Shown here piece after piece: positions 5,510 to 50,826 of a DNA stretch of 64,000 bases (positions are counted from its first letter, which is position 1; each line of letters starts with the position of its first letter). This stretch comes from Psammoneis japonica. Lineage: Eukaryota. A program made the position numbers and the translations under genes. The notes beneath the pieces were generated by a model that was given only the letters and a program-made list of their open reading frames with translations, was not told the origin of the DNA and ran no database searches. The stretch covers positions 310,001-374,000 of the forward strand of contig QPGO01000080.1 in NCBI GenBank assembly GCA_008632985.1, given 5' to 3'.

Positions 5510-5539
5510 CTCGCCTCCCCAATTGCACATTGGAGTCAG

Positions 5540-8681: not shown

Positions 8682-8708
8682 TGCACGAGACCCCTCTTGC
8701 GGTGCAAG

Positions 8709-9850
8709 TCATTCGTCAGAATCGCTGTGCATCATTTTTTCAAATTGACAGTTCTCCTCATCAAGGGTGTCAGAGTCGCAATCTTTGCTCTTGCGCTTTT
8801 TTCCCTTGTTTGAGGAACTCGCTTTGAGTGTTTTTTGAACTGCCTGGACTGCCGTGGCATTCAACTCTTCCTTGCAAGAGGCATTTTCGTCATCGCAATG
8901 TGACCACGTGTGATTGCCATTTGAACGGCGCTGTTTTGGATCACGCTCAATGTTTCCACAGCATTCTTCTGCCAGCTTCTTAATCAACCAGCATTTGTCC
9001 GTGTTGTGAGTGGATTTTTCGCATGAAATGCACCACTTCTCGGACTGAGAATTTTCGGCACTGTGTTGGTGACCATTTTTGGAACCACGTTTGGCGCCAT
9101 TCTTGGCTTTCGATCCAGCACTGCCACTGGGATCAGCCTTGACATGAATGCTGTCAAATGCATCCTCTGCAACCTCTGGGCACTCCAGAAACTCAACCAA
9201 CCCATTGTGGGTGTGTTTCAAAATTTCGAGACCTTGGACGGTCGACTGATGCTGCCACTTTTGAGGTGCAAGATTAAAGAGGATGTTCTTGAGCTCATCC
9301 TCCTCGATCTTCTGATCCTCTCCAAAGGAAGGATGGAATTTGAGGTCTTCGTTGACTTCCTGCACCCAAGCAGCAATTTTGCAAACTTTCTTGGACTCTG
9401 TCTTCTTGAGATCGCGACGCAAACAACGTTTCTGAATCTGGAGTGCATTCTTGGGAAACACATGTCGCGCAAGGTGCTGCAGGCATTTCTCAAAGCTTCC
9501 TTCTTCAGATTCGTCTTCAACATTCGTTGCTCCATTCTCAAAAGCATGCAGAGCATCTCCTTGCAACAGCACACGCATGAGACGAAACTCATCCGCTTGC
9601 TTCTTGATGTTCTGGCCCACTGGAAGTTGATCGCAGCTCTTGAGAAATTCGATGCACTTGGGAACGCCCTGCTTCTTGTGGTGCTCGACATTGACAGTGC
9701 AGGTGTGACCATCCTTCTTCTTGGGATAAAAACACTGCTCCATCTTGAGACACTGACTTGGTTTGAGCATCTTCAGCTCAGAATTTGATTCCAACGGCTG
9801 AGGAACGATTTTCTCTTGCCTTGACAAAGTCTTGGCATTGGCTGCATGAG
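8709..9850 (-). pseudogene. Gypsy gag
   Basis: ORF 8709..9926 directly inside the 5' LTR, with a CCHC-type knuckle WCISCEKSTHNTDKC; one Tyr in 405 aa. Confidence 0.8.
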
Positions 9851-9899
9851 GTGAAAGCTTCATCTGCGACTTGTCACCTTCTGTGGTGTGCATGCACAA

Positions 9900-10280
9900 T
9901 GCACTGTGCTCGAAGAACAAGCACAAATGAAAGTGGAGTCAAGCATGAAAAGTGAAAATTACAAGATTTGTTTCCATCCAATCATTTTGGGTTTCTCCGA
10001 ATGAGCTCTCAATGGCCCAAGGCATTTGTGCTGTTCCCACAGACAAGAGGCCTTTCAAAGAATGAGATCGTGACAACAGATTGTCTGGGTGCGATTGACA
10101 TTGACACGTGGGATGTCAACATCATCGTGCGATCATGTTTGCCATTTTTGACATCTGATCAATTCTGTGTGTGATTGATCTGTCCTTTGTGCGAACCCAC
10201 GATTGACGTGCAATTGAAGTGCAAATTCATTTGATGTCTTCATGTGTGCACATGTGATGTGCATGACAATGCATGTTGCA
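9900..10280 (-). repeat. 5' LTR of the full-length Gypsy
   Basis: Direct repeat of 5131-5509, followed by TSD CAGG. Confidence 0.92.
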
Positions 10281-26381: not shown

Positions 26382-26517
26382 TGCACACGCAGAAACCTGG
26401 CATTGTTCTGCAGAGCCTGTGTGCTGATGAAAAAGTTGGGCTCAGGATCAAAAATGGTGGCCTGCTTGTTCAGCTCACAAACTGAACAAATCAAAATTGG
26501 GTTTTTGTTGCAGAGAA

Positions 26518-26813
26518 TGACAGGATTTGAACAGGATTTAGGTGCACGCGAAATGTCGTGCGCTGTTTGGTTTGCTGCGCACAGTTTTGTGTGCTTTGGT
26601 TCCGCGCGTTCGCACACAATGCAGTTTGCTTTCGAGCCACAAGGCTCACAAGAACAATGACAGTAGCCCGATTGTACCGACTTGCACGTCTTTCGGCTCC
26701 TGCAACGGTCTCTGAGCGGAGACTCATCTGCTGTTTAGACAGCAGCAAGGAGTTGTTGTTTGAACTCTTGCCATTTGCCTTCAATTTCTGTCAGAGAAAC
26801 AAGTGACCTGACA
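26518..26813 (+). repeat. Copia 5' LTR
   Basis: Colinear repeat of 35638-35933 at offset 9120. Confidence 0.92.
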
Positions 26814-26991
26814 ATGCCTTCAATTTCTGTCAGATTGACAGTCTTGCTCATTGTCAACCCATTGAGCAACCGCCATCGTCGTCGTTGATTTACCGACGAC
26901 GCCATTTCAATTCTGCGTGCACCTCCGTGTGTGTTCTACATGCATCGGCAAGTCTGCGCGCATTCAATGCCAGGCATCAGCAGGATTTTAA

Positions 26992-28922
26992 CGGGGACCC
27001 CCCGCAAGTCTGTACAACCATCCGATGGAGCATTTTTTGCGAGTTGAACGCAACTCTTCTCGTGTTGTCACCGCGGTGACCTTCCTTTGAAGTCTGTTGC
27101 ACACCAACCTTGTTGTGGCTGTCCTGCTGGCGATCCTTTTCGATGAATTGTTTGTTCCACTCCTGTTGCTGACATTTGGTGAAAAGGATCGCCAGCAGAA
27201 AGTGTTTTGCAACAACAACAATTGCGTCTCAATGTCACCGTCACCAATCAGCAGCGACACCCCAAACGCCTCCAAGCCAACTCAAATGGAAGAAAAAGCC
27301 GACAAGTGGAAGCATGCAATCCCGGCAGATGATGCATGGGGCCAGCATGGAAGAAAACCAGGGTTTCAGTGCCATGGGTGAGTCGCAAAATGTCAATGTT
27401 CCTTGTCAGTGTTGCATCAACGTCTCGCATCTCACAAACGTTTGTTTGGTCGTTGCAACTGTCCTGCTGTCAATGCTTTCACATAAGTCGTTTTTTCTGC
27501 TCCTGTTGGTGACATTTGATCGAAAGGATTGATGGCAGCAGGTGTTTTTATGACAACAATTGTTTGTCTCTATGTCGCCGTCGCCAAGCCAGCGACACAA
27601 AAAACGCCTCCACCAGGTCACCCAAATGGAAGGTAAAGCCGATGGAAAGAAATGAAGGAAGAGGCGCAAGCAAGAGACACAGAATGCCCCAAGCTGTTCC
27701 TTTGTTGACAGAGAAGTTTTGAACATGAAAATCACCACAAGCTCTGTCTTTTGTGGATTGGTGGCAACAAACAAACATGCATTCAGTCAGAGGCGCCGGA
27801 AACAAAAAAGGAAAGTCAAGATGTCTCCTGTGGGATGTTCACAATGCCTGCCCATCAGAGAATGACAGTTTGAGGGTTTGAAACATGGTCTGAGCTGGGA
27901 CAACTGCAACTAGAAACACTGCTGTTTGTCAGCATGCACAGCATTCGCCACAACTCTGCATTCCAGGTTTTGATTCTGTGGCTCTCATCCCAGGTTGTGT
28001 CCAACAGAAAGACTCCACAGAGTGTTACATTGGTGTCTTGTGATGGCAATTGCTACAGTGCTTGAGCAACTCCTGCACAGAGAAACACCCAACACACCAG
28101 TCGTGTTGCGTTCTCGCGGATGGGCTTGACTGTGGTCGTTGTCGAACAGAAACACTCTACAAAGCATTGCGTTGGTGTCTTGTGATCATGTGTGAACAGT
28201 TGTTGCTGTGCTCAAGCAACTCCCACACAGAGAAACCGCTCTCAAGCGTCATCCTGCCGTGTGCCGGCACGCAAGGGCATGCTGCTCCACCGCAGCTCAT
28301 TTGCAGAAGCAATCGACTGATCAACCAATTTCTTGCCCGATTCTTTGGATCCGCCATCATCAACAGTCTCGGAATCTGACTCAATGTGACGTGTTTCCGA
28401 ATTGCCAGAAGCATCGGGAGAAGCATGACCTTTGTTCTTCTTGCATGTGCGAGTGGCCTGCTTCTGACAAAGTCTGAATTGCCTCCACCACTGCTGCACC
28501 GTCCTTTTCCCTCGCGTTGCTGAGGAGATGTTTGTTCCCAATCCTTTGAGGAAGACACCCTTCAAAATTCTGTGCATCACAGCAACTGTGTTGGAGTTCT
28601 TCACCCGCCAGAGCAACAGCATGGTGGCACTTGCCTCTGCAGTCGTTTGCTGGGAGGGCAACTGAATTTGATGCGCCTTAGAGGCAGATGAGACATTGGA
28701 CTTGTGGAGTCCTGGAAAGCCACCAGATTGCAGTGACTTCAGCATGAGGTCACTGTCCATCCATGCACATGGAACCGCAGCTGGAAAAGCGGCAATAAGA
28801 AGCCACACGGCCTCGACAATCTCCACAGTTGGTTTGCTGTTTTTGTGATTAAAAAAACATCACGCAGCAACCACGGAGCTGAAGGAGCTACGGACAACGT
28901 ACAGACTTACGGGGGGTCCCCG
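26992..28922. mobile_element. Non-autonomous TIR DNA transposon with TTAA target-site duplication (superfamily uncertain, piggyBac/Kolobok-type target)
   Basis: 24-bp TIR CGGGGACCCCCCG(C/T)AAGTCTGTAC; TTAA at 26988-91 and 28923-26; inserted in the Copia 5' UTR; internal diverged duplications; no transposase recognised. Confidence 0.85.
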
Positions 28923-29703
28923 TTAACGTCACCGTCAAGTCTCCTTGCCGCTGGACATCTGGATTGATTGTGCTGCCTTTTGTCGCTGAAGACATGCATT
29001 CAACGGTCATGTCCAAGTCTATCCTTGATCCTCATCCCTTGACATGCCCATTCAACGGTTAACGGTCAAGAACCCCACATGTTCAAGGATCTTCGTCGCT
29101 GAAGACATGCACACACACATGTCTTCACGGCCAAGAACTTGCACCGACTCTTTGGACTGCGGCTTTGCTGCCACTCTACAAGCACACCAAGTCCACTGCA
29201 CCTGATCTGCCCCGGACCACTGGTGCTCTGCAGTTCTGCCAGGTCCACGAGGACGACTGTGAGAGCAAGCAGCCGTGGTTGCAGCCTGCATTGGGGCGAG
29301 GGTGTTTTCCCACGTTTGTTCGTTCGTCCACAGTGCCTGGCGCCTGCATCAACTGGCCAGCCTGATTGGGAAATCCAACCAACATAAAACAAGAATGGTT
29401 CGGGGGTCTTGTCCACCTCTGGTCAGCTCACCTGCAGGGGTTTGCAACCCGCCACTCCGCTCGCAAGCAACCCAAAGCGCCGCTGGCTGCGGGTTCGGAC
29501 GTGCCGGCACAACTCTGCAGACCGGATGGGAAGTTTAGCACTCAACAACGAATGGGGTGACACAGCCCGGCGACTTCTGATTTTAAGATAGTTCAAGATT
29601 TCAAGTCAAGTCCATTTCAAGTCAAGTCCATTCTCACCCAAGTTTCAAGTCCACCTTCGCGTCCCAACCAGAATCGCTTGTTCTGACACCGCTTTTGTCT
29701 GCC

Positions 29704-32700
29704 ATGGTTCTCACTTGTCAGCAACAAACTGATGGTTTCAAGCACCTTGTTGGAACCGTGCTTGCCCAAGGTGCTGGAAGCCCTCTTGGTTTGGCTTTGA
29801 CCCACGACGGCACGGACTCGCATCAAGAACTCTTCACGTTCACACCGCCCCAAATCGACTCGCTTGAGTGCGACAACGGCGCTGATGTGATCCCTTTGCC
29901 CCGTGGTTGTAAGAACATGTTAGCAGCTCTAGTTAGTCTGTACATTGTCAAAGCACACAAAGGTCTTGATGTTGCCAATGACTCCTCGTTGTTCACGCAT
30001 GAGGATTTCCTTGCCTGCTGCCTCAGCCCCGACTGCATGTCTTCTGTGTCCGTCGGCAGCTCGCCTCTTGCACCTCCGCACGTCACCAACCCGACCAAGG
30101 CACGTGACCTGGTGTGAGACTTCAAGCGAGGTGTCAAGCGTGACCCCACTGCTTTCACGGCTCTCAAATCCGACAAGCAGTGGCACACTTGGCACACCTC
30201 ACTTGTGGCACAAGCCCGTGCCCAAGACGTTGAGTGCATTCTAGACTCGTCGTACAAACCGACCAGCCCCAAAGACAAACTGCTCTTTGCTGAACAGCAA
30301 AAGCACATGTTCGCCGTCTTCGAACGCATCCTTCTCACTGACAAGGGCAAGGCTCTCATTCGCGAAAATGTGGGGTCTTCTGACGCCCAGACCGTCTGCC
30401 GCGCCTTGTCCGAGCATGCGCTCGCCTCCACCCGCGCATCCATCGAGTCCTCCACCTTGCTCACGCACCTCACCACCGCACGTCTTGGTGATGGCACTTG
30501 GAAAGGTCTGACCCACGGGTTCATCCTTCATTGGCAGGATCAGTTGCGCAAGTGCGAGGCACTCATCCCGGCCAGTGACCACTTCTCTGAAGGACAGAAG
30601 CGTGTCATGCTCGAGAATGCCGCACATCCTGTCGAGGAACTCCGCGCCGTCAAGAACCAAGCTGATCAGCATTGCACGCAGAGTGGCAAGAGCCTCACAC
30701 ATGATCAACATTGTGGCTTGCTCCTCTCCGCGGCGGCCCAATGCAACAGCACGTTTCAACCCAAGACGACACCTCGAGCTCCCCAACGCGCCATGTGCGC
30801 ACATGACGTCTGCTCCGAGGAACCATCCGATGATGTGTTCTGTGACATCGACAGTGACATTGACGTCCTTCAGGCTGGCGCTGCCCACACTCGCGGTCCC
30901 AGCCTCACCGGTGACCAATGGAAACGTCTCCCCCCCGACCACCAACGGATTTGGGATTCGTTGCCCCATTCCTCCAAGGCGATCATCCTTGAGCATTCTC
31001 GTCTGCCTCCCCGCAACCCGCGAGCCAGCAACTGCCATGAGTCCGTTGCGGCCAACCTTCACGACCAACGACTTGGGAGTGACGGTGATGTCAACTTGTC
31101 CAACACGACTCCTGCTGACTCTGGTGACCCCGCTCCAAATGTGGATGCCACTTCAGATGATCCCATCCTGGCGCACCTCACCAAGTGCAAGCCACTGCCA
31201 CCCGGTGATCTGCACCGCCTGTTGTCTCCTAACCAAGCCTCCAACGCCAGTCGACCGGGCCCATCCACCACTCCCTCTACCTTGCCTGCTCCCACAGATG
31301 ACACAGAACTTAACGGCCACACTTGCCGCCACGTCAATGACCACAATGTCGTTTGCTCTGCCTCCGCTCATCGCTCCACCTCTCGCCAAGTCGACGTTCA
31401 GGGCATTGACGACCATCAATTGGTGGACATCCCCATTGTCACCACTGGTGCTGTCATTGAGACACAGCGTGGTCCCGTCATCGCCATCCTCCATCAGTGC
31501 GCATGCACGGGAAAGGGCAAGACCATTCACTCCTGCGGCCAGCTCGAATGGCACAAACATGATGTCAACGATCGCTCTGTCAAGGTGCCCAACGGCTTGC
31601 AATGTGTCGCCACCCCTGATGGCTGTGTCACCCCAATTGACATCAAGGGCAGCCTGCCTTGTGTTGCCATGTGACCCTGCACTGACGCCGAATGGGACAC
31701 CCTGCCCCATGTCATCCTTGCCGGTGATGACACATGGGACCCTTCCATCCTTGATCACTCTGTCGCTGACGACAACCAGTGGTGCGACGTGATCTCTGAC
31801 CTGCAGGACGATCCCACTGCTGACCTGTTTGACGAATGCAGCAACTGCCATCACCGTGTCGTTGTCAACAAGGCCATCATGTCTGCCACCTTCTCTGCCA
31901 ATCACGCGTCCGCCCTCGATGACCACCTCATTCCGAATGACGACGTGTTCTGCGAGTGTCATCTACACGCGATTGACCCCAAGGATGACAACGTTCCAAC
32001 CCCGGAGCGCACTGTGCAGCCCAAGGACCCCCCATGCGAGTCTCTTCGGCCTTGCTTTGGTTTCCAACCTGCCGATGCGGTTCGTCGCACTTTTGACTGC
32101 ACCACGCAGTGCGCCCGCATGCCCGCCGGTGCTCACCTTAAGAAGGCCTGAAATTCGCCCAACCCTGCCCTTAATGTCCACCGCCGCAACGAGCCTGTCG
32201 CCACTGACACCATCTGTGCCGACACCCCGGCTGTCGACTCTGGTTGCACCAGCGCCCAACTGTTTGTTGGCACTGAGTCTGCTGTCACTGACGTCTGCGG
32301 CACCAAAACGGACAAAGAGTTTGTCAACACACTCAAGGATCAGATCCGTGAGTGTGGTGCTCCATCCAAACTCATCAGCGACCGTGCTCAAGTTGAGATC
32401 AGCAACAAGGTGCTCGGGATCCTGCGAGCCCTCTTTGTCTCCAGCTGGCAAAGTGAGCCTCACCAGCAACACCAAAACTTTGCCGAACGTTGATGCCAGA
32501 CCGTGAAGCGCATGGCGAACACTGTCATGGACTGTTTCGGTTTGCCTGCCCACACATGGCTGCTGGCGCTCATGCACGTGTGCTTCATGCTCAACCACAC
32601 AGCGTCCCCACGTCTCCACTGGCGCACGCCCCTCGAGACTCTCACTGGCTCGACCCGGACATCAGCCCATTGCTTCGCTTTCACTGGTGGGAACCCGTGT

Positions 32701-35630
32701 GCTTCCACCTCGATGACTCCGGTTGGCCGTCTGAATCCCGTGAGTTGCGTGGACGCTTTGTTGGCATTGCTGAGCACGTCGGCCACCAGATGACCTTCAA
32801 GATTCTCTCTGACGACACTCAGAAGATCCTCTGCCAGTCCAACGTATGATCCGCTGCCACCGATCCTGCCGTTCGAAACCTGCATCTTGATCCTCCTGAT
32901 GGGGAGCCACCTGAACCCATCATCAAATCTCGCCATGACGACAACCCCGTCGATTCACCCGATGGGGAGATCAGGACACCCAAGATGCCAGTTTTCGATC
33001 CGCAAGACATCATCGGACGCACCTTCCTCATGCAGCCACAAGAGGACGGACAACGCCACAGAGCTTGCATCGTCAAGGCCGTCGAAGACCACGAATGGAA
33101 AGTGAACGGCAACCCTGAGCTCACTGGGTTCATCTGCTCTGTCAACAACGACGAATGCGAGGAAGTCCTGGCCCACAACGACATCATGAATCACATTGAG
33201 CAAGAAGACGAAGACACCACTGTTTGGAAATTTCGATGCATTGTGTCACACGAAGGACCTCTGAAGCCTCATGACCCAACCTGGAAAGGCTCAAGCTACA
33301 ACATCATGCTTGAATGGGAAAGTGGGGAGATCACGTCCGAGCCTCTTGCCATCATCGCCAAGGACGACCCTGTCACCTGTGCCATCTGTGCACGAGAGAA
33401 CGGACTTCTCGACACTGATGGCTGGAAGCGGTTCCGCACCATCGCGAGGCGCCAGAAGAAGCCACTCCGCATGGCCAACCAAGCCAAGCTTCACTCCTTC
33501 CACACTGCACCTCGCTACAAGCACGGATGCGAAGTTCCCCGGAACTGCAAACACGCCATGTCACTAGATGAACACAACGGCAACCGCAAATGGGGAGACG
33601 CAACTAATCTCGAGATGGACCAACTCGATGAATATGAAGTCTTTCATGACTGCGGGCCCTCCGAGTCTTCCACTCCTCCTGCGGGACACAAGAAGATCCG
33701 AGTGCACCCAGTGTGCGACGTGAAACACGACGGCCACCACAAGGCACGACTCGCAGCCGATGGGCACCTCACGGACGCACCCATCGACAGTGTCTACTCC
33801 GGAGCAGTCTCCCTCCGTGGCCTTCGGCTGATGGACGCGTTCCAGGTCTAGGTGGGACCACGCACTGCTGAACTGTGACATCGATGGTTTTTTGAATCGC
33901 GTCGTATGTCGCGCACGTACATTTCTACGTGATTTTGGCGAAATTTTGCATCATTTTACAGTGCAATTGTCAGGCGATCCATTCAACAACTTTTAACATT
34001 TTTTTCTTCTACGCCATTCTCGAGTGTCTCAAGAATGGTGCAGGGCAGGCGCATTGTCCAAAACTTCGAGTACGAACAGAGATGTGTGCACTGCAAACTT
34101 GGCCGTTTGTTTTGTGTCAAAGACAAATGCATCCATTAACCAGAGTGCGAACTACAGAGCTCGCACGCAGAATTCTACGGGGCAAATGTCACAAAAAGTC
34201 CCACCTGGGACTGGAACCCGTCGATGATTTTCCTGGCCGAACTCAACGAGTTGGAGACATGGGCCACCGACATTGGCAATGCCCACCTTGAAGCCACCAC
34301 CAAGGAGAAGCTGTGCATCGTAGCTGGACCCAAATTTGGCAAACTCGAAGGCCACATTCTTGTCATCCACAAGGCCCTGTGTGGACTGCGCAGCTCCGGC
34401 CTCTGCTGGCATGAGCGCTTCGCCGACTGCCTGTGAGCTGAAGGTTTCTTCCCCTGCCGCGCCAAACCCGACATTTGGATGCGCAGGAACGGCGACCACT
34501 GCGAACACATTGCCGTTTATGTGGATGACCTCGCCATTGCCATGAAGGATCCTCAATCTTTCATTGATGCTCTCACGGAAAAGCACAAGTTCAAGCTTGA
34601 GGGTGCGGGATCGATTGAGTTCCATCCAGGCTGCGACTTTTCCCAGGATCCTGACGGCACCTTGTGCCTGTCTCCGCGCAAGCACATTGAACGTATGGTC
34701 GACAGCTGCACACGACTGTTTGGGGAGAAACCTGCCACCAACACCCTGTCACCTCTGGAGAAGGGTGACCACCCCGAACTGGACACTTCCGAACTGCTGG
34801 GGCCCGATGGCATTCAACAGTTCCAGTCTCTTGTTGGTTCACTCCAATGGGCAGTGTCCCTTGGTCGAATTGACATTGCCACGGCCGTCATGTCACTCTC
34901 TAGCTTCCGAGCTGCACCCCGTCAAGGCCACTTGGATCGTGCCAAATGCGTCTGTGGGCACCTCTCCAAGATGCGACACGGCGCTCTCCGCGTTTGCACG
35001 GAAGAGCCCGACCATTCGGATCCCCCTGCTCCAGCCCATGAATGGATGCATTCCGTGCACAGCAAGGCAGAAGAGATGATCCCGAAGGATGCTCCACCGC
35101 CCCTTGGCAAGTTCGTCACTGCCACCCACTACGTCGATGCAAACTTGTGCCATTGCATGCTCACCGGACGCTCTGTCATGGGAATGCTCCACTTCCTCAA
35201 CAAATTCCCGGCTGATTGGTTCTCTAAGAAGCAAGCCACCGTGGAGACTGCGACCCACGGGTCTGAATTTGTTGCCGCAAGGACTTGTGTCGAGCAGATC
35301 ATCGACCTGCGCATCACCCTGCACTGCCTCGGCATCCCGATCCGTGACATCAGTCACATGTTCGGTGACAACAAGTTGGTTGTAGACAGTGCCACCATCC
35401 CGCACTCCAAGTTACACAAGCGACACACCGCACTGTCATTCCACCGTGTGCGCGAGGCAATTGCCTCTGGTTGCCTTGAGTTCCACTTCATCAAAGGATC
35501 CCGCAACCCTGCTGACATTCTCAGCAAGCATTGGGGTTGCTCCCAAGTCTGGGACCTTCTCCACCCCCTCATGTTCTGGAACTTCATTCCATCCAAAGTC
35601 GAATCTGTTTCTGTGACTCCTCAAGCAAAC
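29704..35630 (+). pseudogene. Copia gag-pol, with stops, frameshifts and pervasive Y->C/H substitutions
   Basis: ORFs 29695.., 30205..31674, 31789.., 32985..33851, 34224..34436 and 34479..35780 are colinear with a Copia polyprotein. Confidence 0.9.
33834..34222. mobile_element. 389-bp MITE with ~25-bp imperfect TIRs and a 4-bp TSD (possibly Sola-type) inserted in Copia RT
   Basis: Left GACGCGTTCCAGGTCTAGGTGGGAC; right (reverse complement) GACGGGTTCCAGTCCCAGGTGGGAC; TSD GATG at 33830-33 and 34223-26. Removing it restores GLRLM-IFLAELN. Confidence 0.9.
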
Positions 35631-35637
35631 TGGGGAG

Positions 35638-35933
35638 TGACAGGATTTGAACAGGATTTGGGTGCGCGCGAAATGTCGCACGCTGTTCAGTTCACCGCGC
35701 ACAGTTTTGTGTGCTTTAGTTCCGCGCGTTCGCGCGCAATGCAGTTTGCTTTCGAGCCACAAGGCTCACAAGAACAATGACAGCAGCCCCATTGTGCTGA
35801 CTTGCACGTCTTTCAGCTCCTGTGATGGTCTCTGAGCGGAGACTCATCTGCTGTTTAGACAGCAGCAAGGAGTTGTTGTTTGAACTCTTGCCATTTGCCT
35901 TCAATTTCTGTCAGAGAAACAAGTGACCTGACA
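35638..35933 (+). repeat. Copia 3' LTR
   Basis: Follows the PPT; matches the 5' LTR. Confidence 0.92.
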
Positions 35934-38280
35934 ATGCCAAAACCCATCAGAGTGCTGATGGCATGAGCAATGTGCCAAAGAGCTCACTGCAAACAATGAC
36001 AGTGGACAACACATGTGCCAGCAAGAAAGAGCGAGAGAAGATCTCATGGAGATCATCTTGTCCATCTAAAAGAGTCTGACCATCATCCACACACAGTCTG
36101 CCCATGTGTCCTGCACAGAGCAGGCTGACAGAAATCCAGGAGAAAGGAGTGCCTTGCATCAAGTGTGGACTCAAGAACCACAAGAAATGCTTGTTGTGCT
36201 TGGACAATGGCGGCCACAGGTGCTTTGATTGTTGCAGACACAATGAAAAGCAAACCATCAAAAGCTGCATGGCAGCAAGGAGCACAACCACACAAAGCTT
36301 TCACACTTCAGACTGTGTGACACACTGCACCAGGAGCACGTCAATTTGAAGTGCCATGAGTGCAACATCAAGTGGAACAAGAACAACTGCAGAGTGGGTC
36401 ATTTGTGCAATGCAAAAAACCAAAGATGGAGAGTTGCAGGCAGAGGTGCATTGCCAGAAGAAGCAAAAGAAGGACTCTTGAGATGCTTCACAGAGAACAG
36501 GAGGGCAGTGGTTTTGTTTGTGTGGATTCAACTTCAGCTTGTGTGGCATTGCCAGTGATGTTGGCTGAAAAGCATGTGCAGTGGCAACAGCAGAGCAAAC
36601 ATGGCAGTGTTCACAACAGCAAACACAGCACAGTGACTGTTGTTGTGCTTGTGATTTGACATTGAAACAGGCAATGTCAAGTTGCACAACAGGCCCTTGC
36701 ACAGGGAAACAGCGCAAAGGCCAGATCCGCAACCCCAGGTGTGACGTCTGCAAAACGCAGACAACAATGACCAAATTCTCTGACCTTGCTGCTGTGGTGG
36801 TGTTTCCATGATGAGAAAAGATTCTGATGTTGTGAGATGATGTGACACAATGGCATCAAGGTTGTCAATGTTGTTGGAATGTGCATTGTGGAGTGATGTC
36901 ATGGAAAACCAAGTCAAGCAAACAGCCTCAAGATGGAAGCGCACTTGACATGAGATGAAATCAGCAAAAAACTCTCAAGTTGAGGTGTGTCCTCTCTCTG
37001 CATGTGCAGGTGGAGGGATGCTGGACAAATCAGACAAGGGCCGTGAAGAGGGTCCCTTGTGATGGGCCTCATCTTGGGGGGAACGAATTTTCTTTGCAGC
37101 CATCCTGCACGAGTCATGAAGGCATTGCAGGATTCATGCAGGTTGGCATGAACAAAATGCAGATTTGTCACATCAGATGCAGACCATCCTGTGCTGCAGG
37201 CAGGTCAACCCAATGCAGTGATGCAAAACCTGTGTGGAGTTCTTCTCTGACATGGCAGCACAACCAAACACAACAGAGGACAAAGCTGGTGGCTCAGGGT
37301 TGTCAGCACCAGCATCAGGAAAATGGCGCCAGTGACAGTGGCACAAAAAGCATGGGGGGCATCGTTGTGAGTCCAAAGAATGGAACAGGCAAGCAGGGAG
37401 CATGGCAGAAGCTTGTTTGGAAACATGGGAGGGGCTGCAGGGGAGCAAGATGACTCGGCACTCTGCCCACACTGTCAACAACTGGCTCCCGATGGAAGAC
37501 AACTTGGTGTGTCAGAGGCTGGAGTTTCTGTGCACAACATGGCAGTGCCAACAAGGGGCTGGAAGCATGTTCTCAACTTTTGGAGCAATGTTGATGAAAA
37601 GAAAAGGGAAAAAAGGGTGGAGCCCTGGTGGAAAACTTGGCACACCTGCTCCAAATGCAACCCCGCTTTTTGCCATGATTGCCAGCGCAGCGGCGCTTCC
37701 TGGTTTTGTGGGGCAAATGTGCTGAGAAGGATGCTTCACCCACCCTCCACCTGCTGAGGGCTAAAAAAAAAGTGAGGTGGCTTGTGATGGAATGTGTTGC
37801 AACACCGCATGTCTGTCGTGGCAGGTGAGTTTGTTTTTTGTTTGTTTGAGTGTTGAGTGGGAGGTGCGGGTGTCTCAACTGACCATTTTTTCGAATTCCG
37901 AGCGTTGGGTTCAAATTTTCATTGATTCATCATTCAAAGAAATAACACATGAAATTGTTTCATTGATGTCAACCATGACATAAATTTATGCTGATGTTCA
38001 TCTCATAAGACTGTCCAGAAAGGCGCGAAGAACACATTCGATGCTGTACGTGCTGCATCATACAGCAGGTACTGTACTGTACCGTACGGTAGATCCAACG
38101 CTTCAAAAAATTCAAAATTGTTCTTTCAACGCACCGTAGAATCTACAGGATCCCTCATACATTTCTGTCAACGCACGCGAAGTCGAGCACCTTTCAAAAT
38201 TGATCCGGTCGAGTTTGGCAAAGCAAATAATCTTCTCACAAATTGCAAAAATTACAAGAACGCAAACAACGACAAAGGCA

Positions 38281-39349
38281 ATGAAAGCAACTATGACTCT
38301 TGTGAAGGCCCTTGTGGTCGCCAGTGCCATGCTGTGCTTCTCATCTGTCCACGCTGGCATCAGCAACCTACCGGCACCGAAGGAGCTTGATGACCTAGTG
38401 GTGAGTGCTACTCTCGCGCCCTGAAAAGCACTAGATGTACGACGATGTACGGTACTCACCATGTTCACGTGTCTATGTTTTCCTGCAGCTTGAAAGCGGA
38501 GGTCGGGCACTCAATGGTGCTGGTGTTGAGCTGGATCCTCAGGATTTTGGGTTGAAACGTACACTGGGTGGTAAAAGGTCCAAGAGCGGCAAAGGCAAGG
38601 GTGGCAACAGATCTTCAAGCACCACCAAAAGCAAGAGCAGCAAGGGCAAGGGCAAGGGTGGCAAAAGATCTTCAAGCGAAAGCGACAGCTTCCTCCCAGT
38701 TTGTGATGAAAGCGTGGACCCCCACACAAAAGTTGGTGGATTCACTCTGGGTGAACTCCAGCTCCGTTGGTGGAACTGGAACATTTGTGAGCAAGCTTTT
38801 GCTTCGGCTGATGGATCGTGTGCAAGCCAAGACCAGGTGCCTAGCGGGTGGCTCTTCCTTGCTGGGGGTGGCGGCGACTGTGACGCCGACATTTTACAGC
38901 GTGCTTGTGACATCCCAGAGGGGACGTACAATGCATTCTTCCCCGTCGTCAATGTTGTTTGCGCTGACTATGATGATGATGTCTGCCAAGATCCAGAGAC
39001 TGGAAGAATGAATTGTGCTGGCCTTGCCGACATTCTCCAACCCAAAAGTGGCTACTCCGAGCTCTTTGCCAGGGAAGATAATAAACTGTTGGATATCTTC
39101 TACCTTTTCGATGACACTGAGCGCTACTTTGAGGCATGCCTTAATGGATATGAAGAATGTGATGATTGCGACGAAATTGAATGCACTAGTCTTGATGGAA
39201 TGGATGCTCACCCCAGTTTTGGTTGGTGGGCACTTGTAGAGGATGTCGAAATCAAGGCAGGAGATACCAAGACCTTTGATGAAGGAGCCAATCTCTTAGC
39301 TGCTGATTTCTGCCCTCGAGTCAAGTACACTCTGACCGGTGTCGTTTAG
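38281..39349 (+). CDS. Secreted protein: signal peptide, K/S/G-rich linker (GKGKGG repeats), acidic Cys-rich domain (WWNW..WLFLAG..C.IP.G..FFPVVN)
   Basis: Exon 1 38281-38400 (MKATMTLVKALVVASAMLCFSSVHAG), intron 38401-38488 (GTGAGT...CTGCAG), exon 2 in frame to TAG at 39349; normal Tyr content. Confidence 0.85.
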
Positions 39350-39869
39350 GAGAGCCGTTTAAGGAGGTGAGTATATTGAGACATTACACGTCATTCAAAT
39401 GGTCACGCATTGAACTCACACCACCTACCCTAACAGGCGACTTTAGGAACATTGTCCATGTGTTATTGTTAACGCGCATACGGCTAACCAGATTGAAATT
39501 ATGGCTGCCGGGCCCTCCTACTGGGAGTAAAACAAATTTAGAAAAAGTATTCATAGTAATGCGTGTTGTAATTTGTGGACAAATGAATACCGGTATAGTC
39601 TTCAGTTCGTACCATTTACTTTCTAGCATCATCTATTAGTAAGTCTCATTTGCTCAGCCACTCTCGACTAAACACACGTCTATCCTTACAAGAAAGCCAG
39701 AAAGAGTTGGGCGGGGTTTTTCACGAAGTAAATTGAATGCAAACAAGGCTTGTTGCAAGTTTTTGTGCATATATCCAGCGGACGCCAAATAACAATTTTA
39801 CCAGAAATCTACGCACGCTAGACTTTGTACTTGTGTTTCATGCATTTTACTCATCGTTTCGGTTTCTCC

Positions 39870-40530
39870 CAAAGTGCTTCAGCTTATAGTGAAAGCCATG
39901 GCATTGACATTGTCTCCAATAGAATGCGTTAGAAAGGCAGAGCGATATTCAATGGGATCAACGGGAGCATTGGTGGGTGGGGACGCAATTGTGCCGGCTT
40001 TTCATGGGCCGAGAGGGTTATTCCAAATTGCGGAAATAATGCAGCTGAATGCTTGGCTTTGATAAAGAATTACAAACGAATGCAGGCATACACAGCAAGA
40101 AAACATCCTTCTCACCTTTGATAGCCTTCATGCTTCAAAATCTTGACGGTGCAGCCACGAATTCCGGAATAGGCAAGTTCGCCCTCTCGTGTTATAACTT
40201 GAAGGCGCGTATTTACTACATCCGCAGGAGTTGTCAAAAATGCAGCTAGTGAAAGTAGTATGGAAACAAATGATGATGGGTCGACAAATGCCATGACATT
40301 GGAAGAAGCTGAATCTTCGTTTGGCGAACAAACTTATACCAGGAACACCAGCAGAGGCTCCCGCGACAAGTAGGTTTGCGGTAGACGGTTCTTGCTGGAC
40401 CCTTCTTGTTCTCAGTTCCATGAGATAGTCCTTGAACCACGCGTACGCGGAAAAGTAAATGGCAGAAAAGGAAAATCGCGAAACAGACACGCTGCCGCAC
40501 CCTTGTAGAGCCCCTGGTAAGCGCTAACTG
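39870..40530 (-). pseudogene. C-terminal fragment of a mitochondrial carrier (SLC25, aspartate/glutamate carrier-like)
   Basis: GLYKGAAACLFRD/FSAIYFSAYAWFK, LLVAGASAGVP [intron] AAFLTTPADVVNTRLQV (Px[D/E]xx[K/R]xR-like), PQFGITL. Frameshifted; the N-terminal repeats are absent. Confidence 0.75.
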
Positions 40531-40699
40531 CAGCTTTGGCATGGATTACCTTTTCTTTCAACATGCTAGCCGTCTTTTCATGGACTTGTATACGATTTTT
40601 TTTGTGATTTCCGAGGGATTAGTCACCAACACTTTCAACTTGACATACTCCAGCACGACCGCCCCTCAAGATTTGAAAGAAAAGTCTATCTGGTTGAGA

Positions 40700-41140
40700 C
40701 AACTGGGTTGTTGATGGTACATCATTGGGACCCGCACTCGGAACTAATGAAGGTGTGGTTGAGGGTACCGTTGAAGGCGTCAAGGATGGCACATCCCTTA
40801 CCAAATGGTTGAGACGACGGGGTTGCTGATGGTACATCACTGGGAGCCGCCCTCGTCAGTGACGAGGGTGTGACTGAGGGTATCGTTGAAGGCGTCAAGG
40901 ACGGGACATCACTTAGTTCAGACGACGGGGTTGTCGATGGTACATCACTGGGAGCCGAACTTGGTCCGCCTGATACAATACTCGACGGTAAGTCACTTGG
41001 AGCAGCACTCGGAACTGTACTCGGCTGATCAGATGGACTACTCGACGGTACGTCACTAGGAACAGCAGCCGGAACTGCCGAAGGTGTTGCTGATGACACA
41101 TTTGATGGCGTCAAGGACGGCACATTACTGGGTTCAGGAC
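40700..41140 (-). repeat. Coding-type Pro/Ser repeat tract (PSDVPS..PS), fragment of a mucin-like surface protein
   Basis: ORFs 40722..41345 and 40619..40840 with PSxxPS tetrapeptide periodicity. Confidence 0.7.
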
Positions 41141-41159
41141 TATGGAGATGTCGATAGAC

Positions 41160-41345
41160 AAATGCTCCGACCGTGGCAACCCCAAGTCCCACAACACTAG
41201 CACCGACACGACCTCCGACACTAGCACCCACCCTGGAACCGACGCCTGAACATACAGTGAATCCCACCGGGAACCCCACTCGTTGGCCTACACTAGGTCC
41301 TACCGAACCAGTTACAAGCTCGCCTTCTCTGTCAATGAAACCCAA
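41160..41345 (+). repeat. Coding-type Pro/Thr repeat tract (PTxAPT)
   Basis: APTVATPSPTTLAPTRPPTLAPTLEPT..PTGNPTRWPTLGPT on the plus strand. Confidence 0.65.
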
Positions 41346-43064
41346 GCCCCTACAGCAGATCCCACAGCAACAGTTGTTCCGACTCCGCCAATTCTTGTTG
41401 TGGTGCTGCCTCGGTGGAGATATCCTGCCACCTCCAACTTAAGCTCCTAGACCACTCAAGCCCGGCAAATCTTTTGTGACACCACCGCCAACGCCGCAGC
41501 GAACTCTGCCTTGTCAAACAGCACCTCCATAAAAACCAGCGTCAACCCCGGCAACTCCAACAGTGCCAAAACCGACACCAACTCCTATCTAACACCTCCT
41601 CCCTCCCACGTTTCCACCAACACCTTCTCTGCATCCACCAACGCCCTTGCCAAGTCCCGAGCTCATGCTATTGCCGACTCCTCCATTCCGCTCCAGCCAT
41701 GTCCTGTACTTTCTGCCCATTCTCAGCAAAACCCTGCTTGACAACACGGCGAATTTTAACCACTGTTTTCAGATCATGTTCATGACACCCGCAGCCCACT
41801 GCAAGTCGGTACCCATCTCGGAAACTGAAAAAATGACAGGCAAAATGAAAATGTGAGGGGAACCACGTACACAATAACAATCCACTGAGGCCACATATCA
41901 CAGTATTACTCACTATGATAGCTTCCAGAGGTAGTTCTGAGACACCCTACATAGTTTTAAGGCCCCAAGTACCACCAGCGGTTCGTGGCATCCGAGCATC
42001 CAAGAGGAGGCGAGGAGCCCGGCAGTGCAAGCCTCCACCTCTCCATTTTACCCGGTGCAAAGCCTGGACTAGTCGGCACACTACCAAGATCTCCCAAAAT
42101 AATGTGGACAATATTGTGTCTTCGAAAATGAAGAGAATCGATTGTAGAGTAGGAAAAAAGGCTCATCATAGACCAGATACCTGCACGCGTGAACGAGACG
42201 CACAAAAAAAGGCTCGTGAGGTATACGACTTTCGTCAAAACGACTCTAAAACTCAATCAATCACAATATACTCACAGTTTTACCTTCTTTAGAGTAATTC
42301 AAGTCTGTCTGACAAATACCAACGTCATAAGTATCCCCGAGGCTCCATCGCGTCGTTTTGTTCCCACGGTGCGCACTTTTCAGAAATTGTGACGGCCAAA
42401 AAACGACATGAAGTGATTACGAGCCGACCAAGACCCCTCCAAGCAAATCAAACACGTCACAACACCACCCTAATATGTATCTTAATATGTATAATAGGTT
42501 CACCAAAGGATGTAGAGTGGGATGAAGCATAAAGCTCCTTAACGGATACGCTTTGGTGGCGCCGACGACTTGGAAAACATGCCAACAAAACAGACACCAT
42601 AATCGACCGTACGGGACGATCCATCCACCTTTCAAACTGTAACAAAATGCAACAATGATCTTTAGTGAGTAGGAAAACGATATAAAAGGGATAAACACAG
42701 AAAGAACTTACCGCCGCAACGTTGTCGACCATTCAGGTGTTACCCGTAGAGCGTGCAACAGTTGAGTCACGAGTCGAGTCACTCCACAGTCTCTACCGCC
42801 GTGTGTCGCAACCGAAGCCTCCCCCCAGAAATCAAACCAATGTATCAGCCTCTTTACAACAACGATAGAAAAAAAGATCCCCCATGAAAGATACGTCGAC
42901 CCAACGATGTTTGCCATGTCGAGGCACTTCAAAGTGCAACATGCCGTTTTTCATGCCAAATCGGGAACGTTTGAGTCCAATCGAATTATTCGACTGTCGT
43001 ACTTCACCTGGTGAAATTTCAGTCACGGACGCCGCCGGGAACCTTGCCGCTGTTCCGATTTTAA

Positions 43065-46920: not shown

Positions 46921-47375
46921 CCTGCTCAAGATCTGGCTCCTCATGGCTTGTGCCACAGCCAACCAGCAAGCTTTGCAGGGAGTGCACCAGCAGCCACAAC
47001 AGAGAAGAAGGGAGGAGGGAGTGAAAGAGGGCAGCCGCCATCAGGCAATGGTGCGGCGCAGAATTGGAGGCCATCAAGAGAGAGTGGTTTGTGCCTCCCC
47101 TGCTCACGCAGGGGTTCTTCGCTCATGAGCTGTTCCCGTGTCGGACGACTGATTTGGAAGCAGTGCACCACAAGTCACCAGAACGAGCCTCTGCTGGCTC
47201 ACTGTTCTTCTCTCTTCGTCAACGGCGCTCCGTCTCCGGGTCCCCTGAAGGTGCAGCGAGCGACACAACAAAAACAAAACCGGCCCTACACCCTGTAAAT
47301 ACTATTGCGATTGGCTTTACCGGTATTCTACACCTCCTGCATGGTGCCGACAGTGCTGTCTTTGACGTTGTCGTG

Positions 47376-49652
47376 ATGCAACTACAACTCTGGAGCTCCA
47401 CAATGTTGCTGTTGTTGTTGCTCAAATGTCAGCAGAGAGCTGCTGCATCGTATGTGATTCAATCGTGTTGCAAAAGATCTTTTATAAATCGTCGCAGCAG
47501 CACGTCAGTTTTTAGCTCCAGAAAAGAGCAAGACGATCCAGTCGACAATGTCAAGTTGCGTCATGCTGCCTTTGATGCTTTGATTTTTGAAGACGCCAGT
47601 TCATTACAAAAGAATAGCGAGAGCAACAAGAACAACGTTCCGAAAGCTTCTTCTTCGTTCTTACCAGAAGACGACGTCGTTATGGATTCGCCTTTTGATT
47701 TTGGAGACTTGGAGGAGGACATTGACCTTGTATCGAACACAGTGACACCAATAAAAGAGGATGTGAGTAACTCTGCTGTCAGCCGCTTTACAGACGATCA
47801 TCCCCAACCCAATCAAGAAGAGCACGATGTTGTTTTGCCCTTTGACGTTGAGGATTTGCAACCACGAGATCCGCAAATAACTTCCATACGCTCGACAACT
47901 CCCAAGGTGGTTTACAGTCTAAGTGATTATGTGTCCCAACAAGAAAAATCAAAAGCAAACAAGCCACTTGCCTCTGTTGCACCGCAAATACTCGATGGAA
48001 ACAGCCCAACGCGTTCACCAGAAGTCGATATATTTCAACCGACTAAACCAATACCCACCTCATCGATTACTCCAGAAACACTGCGTTCTGATCCACAACA
48101 ACGAAAGCTGTCTAATGCAGAAGTCATGAAGCGAGGGTCGTCGGGCAACGGTGTCACGACGGAACTAGATGTTCTACAATCTCGTCTGGAGAAATTGAAG
48201 TCAGAAATTTATGCCATGAACAATAACAAGGAATTCAATGTCAACAGTCCGAAACAGGTTTCGCAAGTACTCTTTGGTGCTGATTCCAAACAAAGCACAA
48301 ACAAGGAGACTCTTGAAGCCATGGGGCCGCAGGCAATGTCTTGGCTGACTTGATTTTGCAGTGGCGTGCGTGCTCTCGTTCCATCAAGCGAATTCAAAAG
48401 AAACCGAAAGAGCGTGTTGTCAATGTTATGGAGTCATCGGCGGGAGTAAAAGACAAGGATTCGGCTAATGGGATGCCTTGCTCTTGGTTGATGCATCAGC
48501 CTACATCTTTCGTGCTTATTATAGCATGCCTCCTCTTCATCGAGCCGATGGAATGCCTGTAGGAGGTGAGAAGGATCATTTCTCTTGCTTCATGGGACTA
48601 CATAATTGGCTCACTCACTCGCTTCTATGCTTTCATTCTTAGCTGTTCTTGGCTTTTGTAACATGCTCAATCGATTGGTAATGCAACGACTGCTGGACGG
48701 AGAATGTCCACGCATTGTATTGGTTTTTGACGCCAAGGGCAAGACTTTTCGGCACGATTTGTACCGAGATTACAAGGCCAACCGCAAGGAATGTCCCATG
48801 GACTTGATTCCACAGTTTGATTTGATTCGAGACGTTGCCACTGCCTATGGTATTCAACAACTCGAGGCCAACTCATACGAAGCAGACGATGTCATTGCGA
48901 CTCTTGCCACCATGGCAATCAACGATGGTATCAATGTCAACATCTTGTCGGGCGACAAGGATCTCATGCAGCTTGTGACACCAAAGTGAGTATTGCTGTT
49001 TATTTTGTGCATTAATCTCGTTCTCTACCTGCTCTTTCTCAACTCTATCTCCTCGCCCATTCCATAGGAACGCCTCGCCACGTGTCATCATGATTGATCC
49101 AATGACAATGGCTCGTATTGACCATGATGCCGTCGTGGAAAAGTGGGGAGTGTCACCCGAAAAGGTGGGAGATTTACTTGCTCTGGCGGGGGATTCATCC
49201 GATAATATATTCCGGGTGTGCCTGGCATTGGACCCAAGATTGCGTCACAGCTTTTGCAGCAGTTTGGGTCTTTGGAAAATCTCTTGAAACGAGCTGAAAC
49301 AATTCCGCAGACGGCACGACGAGAAAAGATTGTGAACAACATCGATAAGGCCTTGTTGTCGAGAAAGCTAGTGGAATTGGAACGCCAGATCCCCGTGCAC
49401 AACATGACATTTCCCCAGAATGCAAGAGTTGCCGATCTAAGGATAGAACCAATAGACACGGAAAGGCTTACAGCGTTGTACGAAACAATGGGCTTGAAGG
49501 ACTTGAAGCGGAGGTTTCAGGATCGGGTAACACAGCGCAATCGACAGCAAAAAGCTGCAACGTCAATGTCACCAAGAAAATCTCGTACCTACAACAAACG
49601 GCCAATAGCGGAGATACCGAAACCGCAGGACTACGACGACGTTCCATTCTAG
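47376..49652 (+). CDS. DNA polymerase I-type 5'-3' exonuclease (flap endonuclease) without a polymerase domain, probably organelle-targeted
   Basis: LLLVDASAYIFRAYY, VFDAKGKTFRHDLYRDYKANR, YEADDVIATLA, SGDKDLMQL, LAGDSSDNI-PGVPGIGPK (HhH). Introns 48566-48642 and 48986-49067. Apparent frameshifts near 48325, 48470 and 49207 may be consensus errors. Confidence 0.88.
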
Positions 49653-49940
49653 AGGTTGCCTTCTAGCTTAAAAATTTCTCTCTTCATAGAAACATATCAT
49701 TCTTTCACCGGTGCTGGGTGCAGTGAATTCGCGCCAATACTGTGCAGCAGTCAACGCAGCTGGCATTGTACTCTAGAAAGGGTGGAATGCATCTCGCATT
49801 TGGAAAATAGGCTAGCTTCCGAATAAAGGCATATCCTTCAAAAAGTTGCAGATTTGGCATTTATCACAACGGCATCGCCATGCTGGGAACTGAAACAGCA
49901 CAGCGGTAACAGCACACAGCCGCCGGCAGTGAAGCTTTTG

Positions 49941-50826
49941 TCAATTTTTGGACCGGTCTTGCAATGAATCGAGAATCAGTTCCAGCTTTGTCGAGACGTC
50001 ATTCCACGTGTGATTCGTACGTTTGCGCCTTTCTTCGCTTGCGCGGTCCAAATCCAAGTGGCAAAAGGTTCCATTCCTATCAACCATGACTTGAAAGTCA
50101 AACGCTAGATCAGCATGCTCCGCAATCATGTCTGCTGTTCGTTTAACTTCCTCTTGGAATTTTAGCTGAAACGACTTTGGATTCACAATCAGGGGACGAA
50201 AAGTTTCCAACTGACTCACGGTAAGTTCCAAGTTGGCTCCTACGGTTCCCACCAACAGGTTTGGCTCGGGGATGCGTCTCGTCTTTTGCAGCATAACAAC
50301 CGGATTTTCTCCAAAAGGCAAACGAACGGGCAAGCCAACAGTTTCTCGTTGGGGTTGGCGGACACAGGAATTCAGCACGGCCAGCTGTTTTTCGGCAAGC
50401 TCAACCTTTTGTAGGGGCATTCCATTCCCAACTTTGTAATGCCGCAATTCGAACTCAACTCTTCTTCAAAGTGAAACGCCTTTGTCATGTCTTCATGGGA
50501 TCTTCCGCCTGACACCAAATGTCCCAGTGCAGGGTTTGTGGCAGAATTAAAGTGGCACTTGTGACAGCCACAGATGCTTGCGCCAGCGCTCCAATCCATG
50601 TCTGACCAAGGGTGACCCTCGAGTTTCATTGCTTGTTGGGCGTTCTCAACGTTTTTTGAAAGCTTTGCATCCAGCAAGTCGGACTGTGATTTGACAGGAG
50701 TTTCCTCCTCTGCACCGTCAACTTCGAAATGACGAGTCTTGCTCTCGAACGTTTCTGGGGTTTGAGCGACAAAATTGATGCCAAAGTCGTCAGTTTTCTT
50801 CAAAAAGGCCATCATGCAGAGCCATG
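49941..50826 (-). pseudogene. Duplicate of the 240-1125 host gene
   Basis: Identical ORFs 49941..50447 and 50372..50815, with the same frameshift. Confidence 0.55.

Follow-up and report, generated by a model that had tools for sequence, protein, structure and literature searches.

The question raised here is when, on which DNA and by what process the long terminal repeats (LTRs) of a Copia element came to differ in the 64,000-nt stretch of Psammoneis japonica DNA that we analysed (contig QPGO01000080.1, positions 310,001 to 374,000; hereafter the window). A repeat search of the window retrieved the pair as direct repeats of 300 nt (26515-26814 and 35635-35934), 93% identical and spaced by 9120, and blastn found no third copy of 26515-26814 within the 64-kb window. 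The LTRs proper are shorter, since they stop at 26793 and 35913 with the sequence CTGTCA, and not at about 35933 as the initial annotation had it. They are bordered by a target-site duplication (TSD), GAGAA, that this annotation had reported as missing (coordinates of all features are given in Table 1). Because the TSD is found on both sides, just outside canonical TG...CA inverted ends, the two repeats are the LTRs of one Ty1/Copia insertion, which disposes of the case, considered earlier, of two LTRs derived from different insertions. The direct LTRs, the TG...CA inverted ends, the 5-bp TSD and the polypurine tract are all as in Ty1/Copia elements; the RVT_2 polyprotein of this group is recognized through homologues, the 120 listed ones carrying PF07727 with E-values down to 1.9e-184, and not through a direct Pfam match, the remnant itself having an RVT_2 score below cut-off (21.3 vs 31.6 bits). 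A TpA-specific chromosomal transition process, accompanied by slower CpG decay, very probably acted independently on each LTR of this one insertion. According to this scenario, two LTRs that would have been the same at integration would have been exposed to a faster process, confined to transposon and repeat DNA, converting TA to TG (A to G on one strand) or to CA (A to G on the other), and to a slower one, ordinary CpG decay, converting CG to TG or CA. Hits in one LTR would yield TA/TG, TA/CA, CG/TG and CG/CA pairs, and opposite-strand hits in both LTRs would yield TG/CA pairs. Chemically, the likeliest event would be that an enzyme deaminates adenine in DNA to inosine at 5'-TA-3', the mechanism put forward for Bigelowiella natans.

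Aligned over their 276 nt, the LTRs show 20 differing bases at 16 sites, 19 of the 20 being transitions, which amounts to a divergence of 7.2%, or 10.6% outside the converted tail described below. A site-by-site table recovered all 8 differences listed initially, each within 1 nt. Four sites have TA in one LTR only (5'/3': 26540 TA/TG, 26598 TG/TA, 26664 TA/CA, and 26676 TA/TG) and four others, which we call reciprocal sites, oppose TG to CA (26559-60 TG/CA, 26568-69 TG/CA, 26573-74 TG/CA, and 26703-04 CA/TG). The statement that nearly all other differences are CG versus TG/CA stands for seven sites (26546, 26576, 26614, 26616, 26678, 26695, and 26706) and fails for one, a G/C transversion at 26670, inside a CpG. 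Differing bases occupy 20 of the 145 positions belonging to pyrimidine-purine (YR) dinucleotides and none of the 131 positions elsewhere (Fisher p = 1.5e-6). TA is retained in both LTRs at a single site (26736), in the context TTAG, which is also the context of two of the four half-kept TA sites. The two LTRs of a retrotransposon are identical at insertion; as those of this single insertion, with its perfect 5-bp TSD and canonical ends, now differ, the mutations took place after integration, in agreement with the initial annotation. Its warning that LTR dating is inflated here proved equally sound, given that all 20 differences fall at TA- or CG-type sites. With LTR divergence lying wholly at such hypermutable sites, standard dating would make a possibly very young insertion appear many times older, and dating in this genome should use non-YR positions only.

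Two LTR copies alone give no direction to these changes, for which we used protein outgroups. Among 6740 candidates scored, the reverse transcriptase (RT)/RNase H open reading frame (ORF) of the Copia element had 1665 homologues, the best 120 of which (56-70% identical, many of about 1850-1900 aa) were aligned to the element by tblastn, giving 691 conserved columns (50 or more homologues, of which 80% or more agree). Of the 35 columns in which Tyr is conserved, 15 are Cys in the window copy, 11 are His, 3 Phe, and 1 Trp, and 5 have kept Tyr. The same base changes in control contexts are rare: A to G at codon position 2 occurred at 4/182 positions following A, G, or C (codons for Asn, Lys, Asp, Glu, Gln, and His) vs 15/35 following T, and T to C at position 1 at 0/90 positions preceding T, C, or G (Phe, Ser, Cys, and Trp) vs 11/35 preceding A, with p values from 2e-7 to 6e-18. 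The reverse change, which would place a TA-containing codon at a Trp, Cys, His, or Gln column, was never found (0/75). The proposed direction, TA to TG or CA, is thus borne out by His or Cys at 26/35 Tyr columns, and the absence of TG/CA to TA changes implies that the four TA states in the LTRs must be ancestral. Action on both strands, another of the initial claims, is likewise apparent from the similar numbers of His (sense T to C) and Cys (sense A to G) replacements (binomial p = 0.56), whose order along the polyprotein reveals no strand-coordinated tracts (14 runs vs 13.7 expected, hand count). At the 50 conserved Arg columns, the copy has Arg 35, Cys 7, His 3, Gln 2, stop 2, and Thr 1; 33 CGN codons are kept and 14 lost, a loss of 14/47 = 0.30 to be compared with 26/31 = 0.84 for TA (p = 2.7e-6). 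The TA process is therefore faster than CpG decay in this element.

Over the Copia and two Gypsy elements, Tyr to Cys changes outnumber Tyr to His changes 24 vs 14, a non-significant excess (p = 0.14), and TG exceeds CA on the coding strand of both Copia 29704-32655 (+ strand; TG 1.78, CA 1.41) and Gypsy 5500-9900 (- strand). Together they may reflect a weak, not significant, non-template-strand bias. The metagenomic Copia relatives among the 120 listed are not hypermutated, the lowest Tyr retention being 24/35 in a homologue with His 3 and Cys 0, and the ranking by score biases against mutated copies; the nearest Copia-protein cluster includes one member labelled Bacillariophyta. Two other candidate causes were rejected: GC-biased gene conversion, because A/T to G/C changes are rare outside TA, as the control contexts indicate, and selection against TA, because conserved Tyr residues were destroyed in a copy that also carries two Arg to stop changes, a frameshift, and an insertion.

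The TpA-loss signature recurs in two Ty3/Gypsy copies. Comparison of the LTR pair 5131-5510/9900-10281, a check suggested by the initial annotation, gave 60 transitions, 1 transversion, and 18 CA/TG sites. Using 150 homologues from a representative search, the 11 Tyr-majority columns of the element at 5131-10281 were found to contain Cys 7, His 1, Phe 2, and Tyr 1, with controls of 0/66 and 0/29, and the four Tyr columns of a second fragment (13.3-15.0 kb) His 2 and Cys 2. A three-copy Gypsy LTR alignment has 23 mixed TG/CA sites, 2 CA/TA/TG, and 2 CA/CG/TG, whereas a star-tree fit, a hand calculation that is rough as the copies do not form a star tree, predicts only ~2 mixed sites from CG. 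These numbers bear on a rival explanation, namely that methyl-CpG deamination alone produced the four reciprocal sites from CG, the four TA-bearing sites being secondary or due to chance. Seven LTR differences are indeed plain CG versus TG/CA, the reciprocal sites at 26559-26574 lie among CpGs, and 11 of the 14 substitutions in a 99.8% identical duplicate (see below) are of CpG type. Nevertheless, changes from Tyr to His or Cys codons are beyond the reach of CpG decay, which leaves the ancestral TA states unexplained and falls far short of the 23 mixed Gypsy sites. It also predicts too few reciprocal sites in the Copia LTRs: using the interior loss rates (TA 0.84, CGN 0.30), 11 CG/CG sites, and 4 TA/x sites, we expect 5.2 from TA and 1.0 from CG in the unconverted 189 nt, and an LTR-only estimate (CG/CG = 11, CG/x = 7) lowers the latter to 0.56, compared with 4 observed. 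We consider CpG decay as the sole cause very improbable; of the four reciprocal sites, about three probably derive from TA and about one from CG, an estimate for the set and not for any single site.

Other copies of the Copia family were found in the reads of one sample (four coded runs), placed on the window at >=80% likeness, that is, at least 80%. Contig depths sum to 85-365 across 36.0-41.3 kb and to 37,000-150,000 across most of the Copia element; the family is highly repeated, summed depth not being a copy number. Variant places in run X1 comprise 1233 transitions and 342 transversions. The following counts rest on 40 of 1592 rows, with two row pairs reclassified by hand and only 26659 and 26664 lying in the LTR. 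In 19 of the 40 listed rows the window copy has CA or TG where other copies have TA, and in 3 where they have CG. Two rows make up one reciprocal site (29218/29219), at which the family has TG, and in two more the window has TA and other copies CA, one of them being the LTR site 26664, where T (TA) accounts for 69% and C for 31% of the family depth in run X1. The remaining rows are one with CG in the window and CA in other copies, three other transitions, and 10 transversions or complex changes (28981/28982 being complex). The three small runs assemble only the high-copy element and, because the other letter takes all or nearly all the depth in most of the rows listed, the family majority is TA where the window copy has TG or CA. 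At 29110-29116, the window copy has (CA)n where 25-34% of the family depth has (TA)n, which suggests that a TA microsatellite was rewritten to a CA microsatellite.

The 5' LTR retains traces of a further event. The last part of the LTR belongs to a 112-nt block of identity (26707-26818 = 35827-35938), and the 25 nt behind it (26794-26818) are identical to the 3' flank at 35914-35938; a 20-nt repeat occurs at 26776-26795 and 26815-26834. Other family copies lack 26794-26832, and in them the LTR end is contiguous with the internal region (loose ends at 26815 and 35915). All 16 variable LTR sites are within the first 189 nt, which has a chance of ~6e-4 if they were evenly spread. We read 26794-26832 as the probable footprint of a repair or conversion event in which the 3' LTR and its flank served as template; this would explain both the 112-nt identity and the restriction of the variable sites to the first 189 nt. 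This event would have followed the mutations, copying the 3' LTR end plus 25 nt of flank onto the 5' LTR, and would have erased any LTR differences in the last 87 nt. The 25-nt copy of host flank sits at a TGCC microhomology.

Such a footprint in the same element, the very high summed depth of the family compared with ~100 for the flanks, and the fact that four neighbouring sites (26559-26576) differ in the same sense give some substance to another explanation, that ectopic gene conversion imported some or all of the LTR differences from family copies already mutated. On the other hand, variants imported in this way would themselves be TA- or CG-derived, hence products of the same process, and no difference outside YR positions was co-imported (0/131) despite the 9 transversion rows among the 40 listed. 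Ectopic conversion is therefore an unlikely source of the differences, and independent mutation of each LTR in place is the reading that we retain.

The depletion extends well beyond the Copia element. Window-wide, the observed/expected (obs/exp) ratio is 0.15 for TpA, 1.64 for CpA, 1.59 for TpG, and 0.59 for CpG, with TpA at 0.02-0.2 in repeats and mostly at 0.4-0.8 in two gene-like islands. On a 500-bp map, the islands have sharp edges (~38.0, 44, and 47 kb): at the left one (~38000), there are 0-4 TA per 500 bp before it and 22 TA in 38001-38500, TpA obs/exp being 0.00-0.11 up to 38000 and 0.63 from 38001. The flank at 35939-38000 has a depth near that of the adjoining single-copy stretch, yet its TpA and CpG ratios are 0.04 and 0.21. 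Contigs of run X1 match the window at 35999-37537, where TpA obs/exp is ~0.03, with 0 differences, and at 37508-41854 with 4. The depleted flank, a low-copy segment nested in the Copia leader (0.09), and a later 390-bp insertion at 33834-34223 that is only partially depleted (0.40, with 11 TA) are as expected of a process that acts on chromosomal DNA over time.

By contrast, editing of RNA or cDNA before integration, by an ADAR- or APOBEC-like enzyme, would have supplied the window copy with inherited mutations. Deaminase editing of retroelements ahead of their integration is known (see, for example, the account in PMC5391955), and many variants are common to family copies. This mode of editing marks one strand, whereas both were hit here, and it would leave identical marks in both LTRs, not the 16 differing sites of a single TSD-flanked insertion; depletion is, in addition, equally strong in the nested low-copy insert and in the low-depth flank. 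We give this explanation hardly any credence. Even less probable, to the point of being almost negligible, is a sequencing or assembly artefact in which a modified base at TA was miscalled in long reads. The indels of the 14.3-kb duplicate described below, 6 of 11 being one T in a T run, do suggest a long-read assembly, but an artefact would not stop at the sharp limits of domains that adjoin TpA-normal DNA, one and the same run contains TA and TG/CA variants as distinct copies, and the X1 contigs (word depth ~100), which may be the data of the assembly itself, agree with the window over the stretches just mentioned.

Loss of TpA depends on its neighbours. We compared TA tetranucleotides in depleted DNA (2001-38000 plus 44001-46000) and normal DNA (38001-44000 plus 48001-49701), assuming that the repeats began with the composition of the islands. 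Relative to the normal islands, density is 0.87 for TTAA, 0.22 for CTAA/TTAG, 0.17 for GTAA/TTAC, 0.15 for CTAG, 0.135 for ATAA/TTAT, 0.11 for CTAC/GTAG, 0.06 for GTAC, 0.04 for ATAG/CTAT, 0.03 for ATAC/GTAT, and 0.01 for ATAT. In absolute terms, TTAA occurs at 1.24 per kb in depleted vs 1.43 per kb in normal DNA, and ATAT at 0.03 vs 2.34 per kb. TTAA is almost immune, and sites with A at -2 relative to the target adenine are the most vulnerable. The TTAG contexts of the TA sites kept wholly or by half in the Copia LTRs agree with this order.

Several observations weigh against our interpretation. For the four reciprocal sites, the ancestor is deduced from rates and was not read directly. Three of them (26559-26574) are in a CpG-dense patch, beside a same-direction CG/TG change in the 5' LTR, and CG ancestors would also fit there; three sites would all differ in the same sense by chance with a probability of 1/4. 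As the assembly may have been made from the very sample used here, its runs do not confirm the sequence independently. Finally, the block 1-14306 is found again at 49702-64000, 49.7 kb apart and 99.8% identical, the outcome of a recent large-scale duplication or of a duplication in the assembly. Its 14 substitutions are all transitions, and it has 11 indels, which look like long-read errors (the six T-run cases involve runs of >=4 T, i.e., at least 4). None of the 92 shared TA sites has changed, compared with ~12 changes predicted by the Copia rate ratio and 2.4 if rates were equal. The TA process may be episodic, it may no longer act on this block, or the surviving TAs may be refractory.

Table 1. 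Features of the Copia insertion and of its surroundings in the window.
Feature	Position	Strand	Remarks
Ty3/Gypsy element	5131..10281	-	LTRs 5131-5510 and 9900-10281; Pfam rve, Integrase_H2C2, RT_RNaseH, and RVT_1 in Gypsy order
TSD, 5' copy (GAGAA)	26513..26517	+	Same 5 nt at 35914-35918, immediately outside the TG...CA ends of the LTRs
5' LTR, 276 nt	26518..26793	+	TGACAG start, CTGTCA end (perfect inverted end); aligned to 35638-35913
Eight informative LTR sites	span 26539..26704		4 sites with TA in one LTR plus 4 reciprocal TG/CA sites
39 nt private to the window copy	26794..26832	+	25-nt copy of the 3' flank, then the last 14 LTR nt again
Low-copy segment within the 2.9-kb leader	27335..28668		Summed depth 688-1082; TpA obs/exp 0.09
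Copia polyprotein remnant, 3 pieces	29704-32655, 32655-33833, 34224-35600	+	tblastn with 3 full-length homologues of 1857-1918 aa
390-bp insertion private to the window copy	33834..34223		Skipped (33829->34223) by contigs of all four runs
Polypurine tract (GGGGAG)	35632..35637	+	Abuts the 3' LTR; read off the sequence
3' LTR, 276 nt	35638..35913	+	TGACAG...CTGTCA ends; alignment with 26518-26793
TSD, 3' copy (GAGAA)	35914..35918	+	Matches 26513-26517
TpA-normal island 1	38001..43000		TpA obs/exp 0.6-0.8 in 9/10 500-bp bins; bin 38501-39000 = 0.22
TpA-normal island 2	47001..50300	+	Contains a 5'-3' exonuclease/PolI-like host gene (48606-49649)

Within the Copia element, the low-copy segment of the leader is probably a nested insert. 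Full-length homologues are collinear with the element over 29704-35600, and the polyprotein has a frame shift at ~32653, where one more base (at 32653) is present in other family copies. The mutated copy yielded no integrase domain call, and an integrase upstream of the RT would be expected solely from its collinearity with the homologues. A megablast search of the LTR against plasmids gave no match, and an exact search of metagenome contigs with a conserved 35-mer of the LTR tail gave 0 matches.

The surroundings of the element include both extremes of TpA content. The stretches 22001-26000 and 36001-37500 have TpA at 0.00-0.05, CpG at 0.06-0.20, and TG/CA at ~1.9, and look like the end state of both mutation processes; Pfam yielded no match for the ORFs tested in 22-26 kb and one sub-cut-off match only in 36.0-37.5 kb (RECK-like_N, 20.2 bits). 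Just upstream of the Copia element, 25705-26381 consists of two tandem units of ~340 bp, 89-92% identical, whose differences are mostly CA/TG, CG/x, and TA/x. At the other extreme, 41300-44000 has a summed depth of 1100-2660 (vs ~100 for the unique flank), yet normal TpA (0.53) and CpG (0.89), which means that hypermutation passes over some repeats; the present one may be young or unmarked for silencing. It contains an inverted repeat of 210 nt (43063-43272/43347-43556, 91%). No homologue was found for the ORF 38435-39346. The host gene of the second island is recognized by Pfam as 5_3_exonuc_N (E = 2.8e-37) and 5_3_exonuc (E = 5.1e-19), and the best match of the exonuclease exon is 81% identical. 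Its named relatives among the 120 listed are all ochrophytes (Triparma, Seminavis, Fistulifera, Leptocylindrus, and Cyclotella; 60-72%), which suggests that the host is probably an ochrophyte, of a lineage distinct from that of the rhizarian B. natans. The exon did not match itself, as a gene of B. natans should have done, the proteome of that alga being in NCBI, and B. natans is an improbable source of the window. The exonuclease is split over three frames, and an ORF at 47025-48350 with a short DNA_pol_A match lies upstream of its domains, the reverse of the usual PolI order; introns, assembly indels, or decay of the gene could be the cause.

Taken together, these data raise the possibility, to which we would assign somewhat less than an even chance, of a transposon-directed genome defence based on TpA-specific adenine editing, a mirror image of fungal repeat-induced point mutation (RIP) operating in a second, distant algal lineage and leaving a TTAA-immune, ATAT/ATAC-vulnerable footprint. 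The near-complete signature across Copia and Gypsy elements in an apparently different algal lineage points to a general anti-transposon system. If this is true, TpA defence would be old or widespread among SAR (stramenopile, alveolate, and rhizarian) protists, and its footprint could serve to identify the enzyme responsible, which would be a naturally occurring DNA adenine deaminase with sequence specificity. The context rule (TTAA spared, A at -2 vulnerable) offers a handle for finding it, and a natural dinucleotide-specific DNA adenine deaminase would interest builders of base editors.

A process of this kind has been known since a 2026 preprint on B. natans (bioRxiv 10.64898/2026.01.13.699255, Mettrop et al.), the only description of TpA-directed hypermutation that our literature search retrieved. 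As reported there in the main text, 231 of 302 new point mutations in mutation-accumulation lines were located in two viral regions integrated in the genome; with a single exception, these were A to G or T to C (210/211 in the region derived from a nucleocytoplasmic large DNA virus, NCLDV, and 20/20 in the virophage region), those all at TpA, and they arose in only some lines. The same text describes TpA-depleted coding sequences as enriched in reverse transcriptase and DDE domains, proposes an ADAT2-like adenosine deaminase as the enzyme, and quotes a preference of ADAR for a 5' U. Judged by this account, the window resembles B. natans in its almost exclusive A to G and T to C changes, at TpA only, giving TpG or CpA depending on the strand, and in a TpA loss local to foreign or selfish DNA beside a normal genome. 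The recent duplicate in the window without TA changes also recalls B. natans, where the process is not constitutive. Unlike the giant-virus and virophage inserts of that alga, the targets in the window are LTR retrotransposons and other repeats, and depletion is near saturation (obs/exp 0.02-0.2), in contrast with the Rho of 0.45 given for the NCLDV region. The B. natans mutations were seen arising de novo, whereas the signature in the window is read from sequence comparison alone. What the window adds is the post-integration proof from an LTR pair, near-saturation in the retrotransposons of a probably different lineage, and the TTAA-sparing context rule; in the main text of the preprint, 'LTR', 'retrotransposon', and 'TTAA' occur 0 times each, so that the LTR and TSD evidence and the sparing of TTAA come from the window.

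With fungal RIP, as described in PMC2621366, the process shares chromosomal, dinucleotide-specific, both-strand transitions in repeats that inflate the divergence between copies. Its direction is the opposite, since RIP converts CpA to TpA and enriches TpA, whereas TpA is down to 0.15 in the window and CA/TG to TA changes number 0/75. Targeting of duplications, a further trait of RIP, is not evident here: the 99.8% identical duplicate has no TA hits, and a roughly single-copy flank is depleted. Methyl-CpG decay accounts for the 7 CG differences between the LTRs, the 14/47 CGN losses, and 11/14 substitutions of the duplicate, but it cannot act on TA and is the slower of the two processes in the Copia element (0.30 vs 0.84). 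The likeness to APOBEC3 and ADAR lies in a deaminase-type hypermutation directed against selfish elements, and the 5'-T preference fits an adenosine deaminase; those systems, as far as the sources cited describe them, act on RNA or cDNA, before integration and on one strand, whereas the marks in the window are on both strands and were made after integration.

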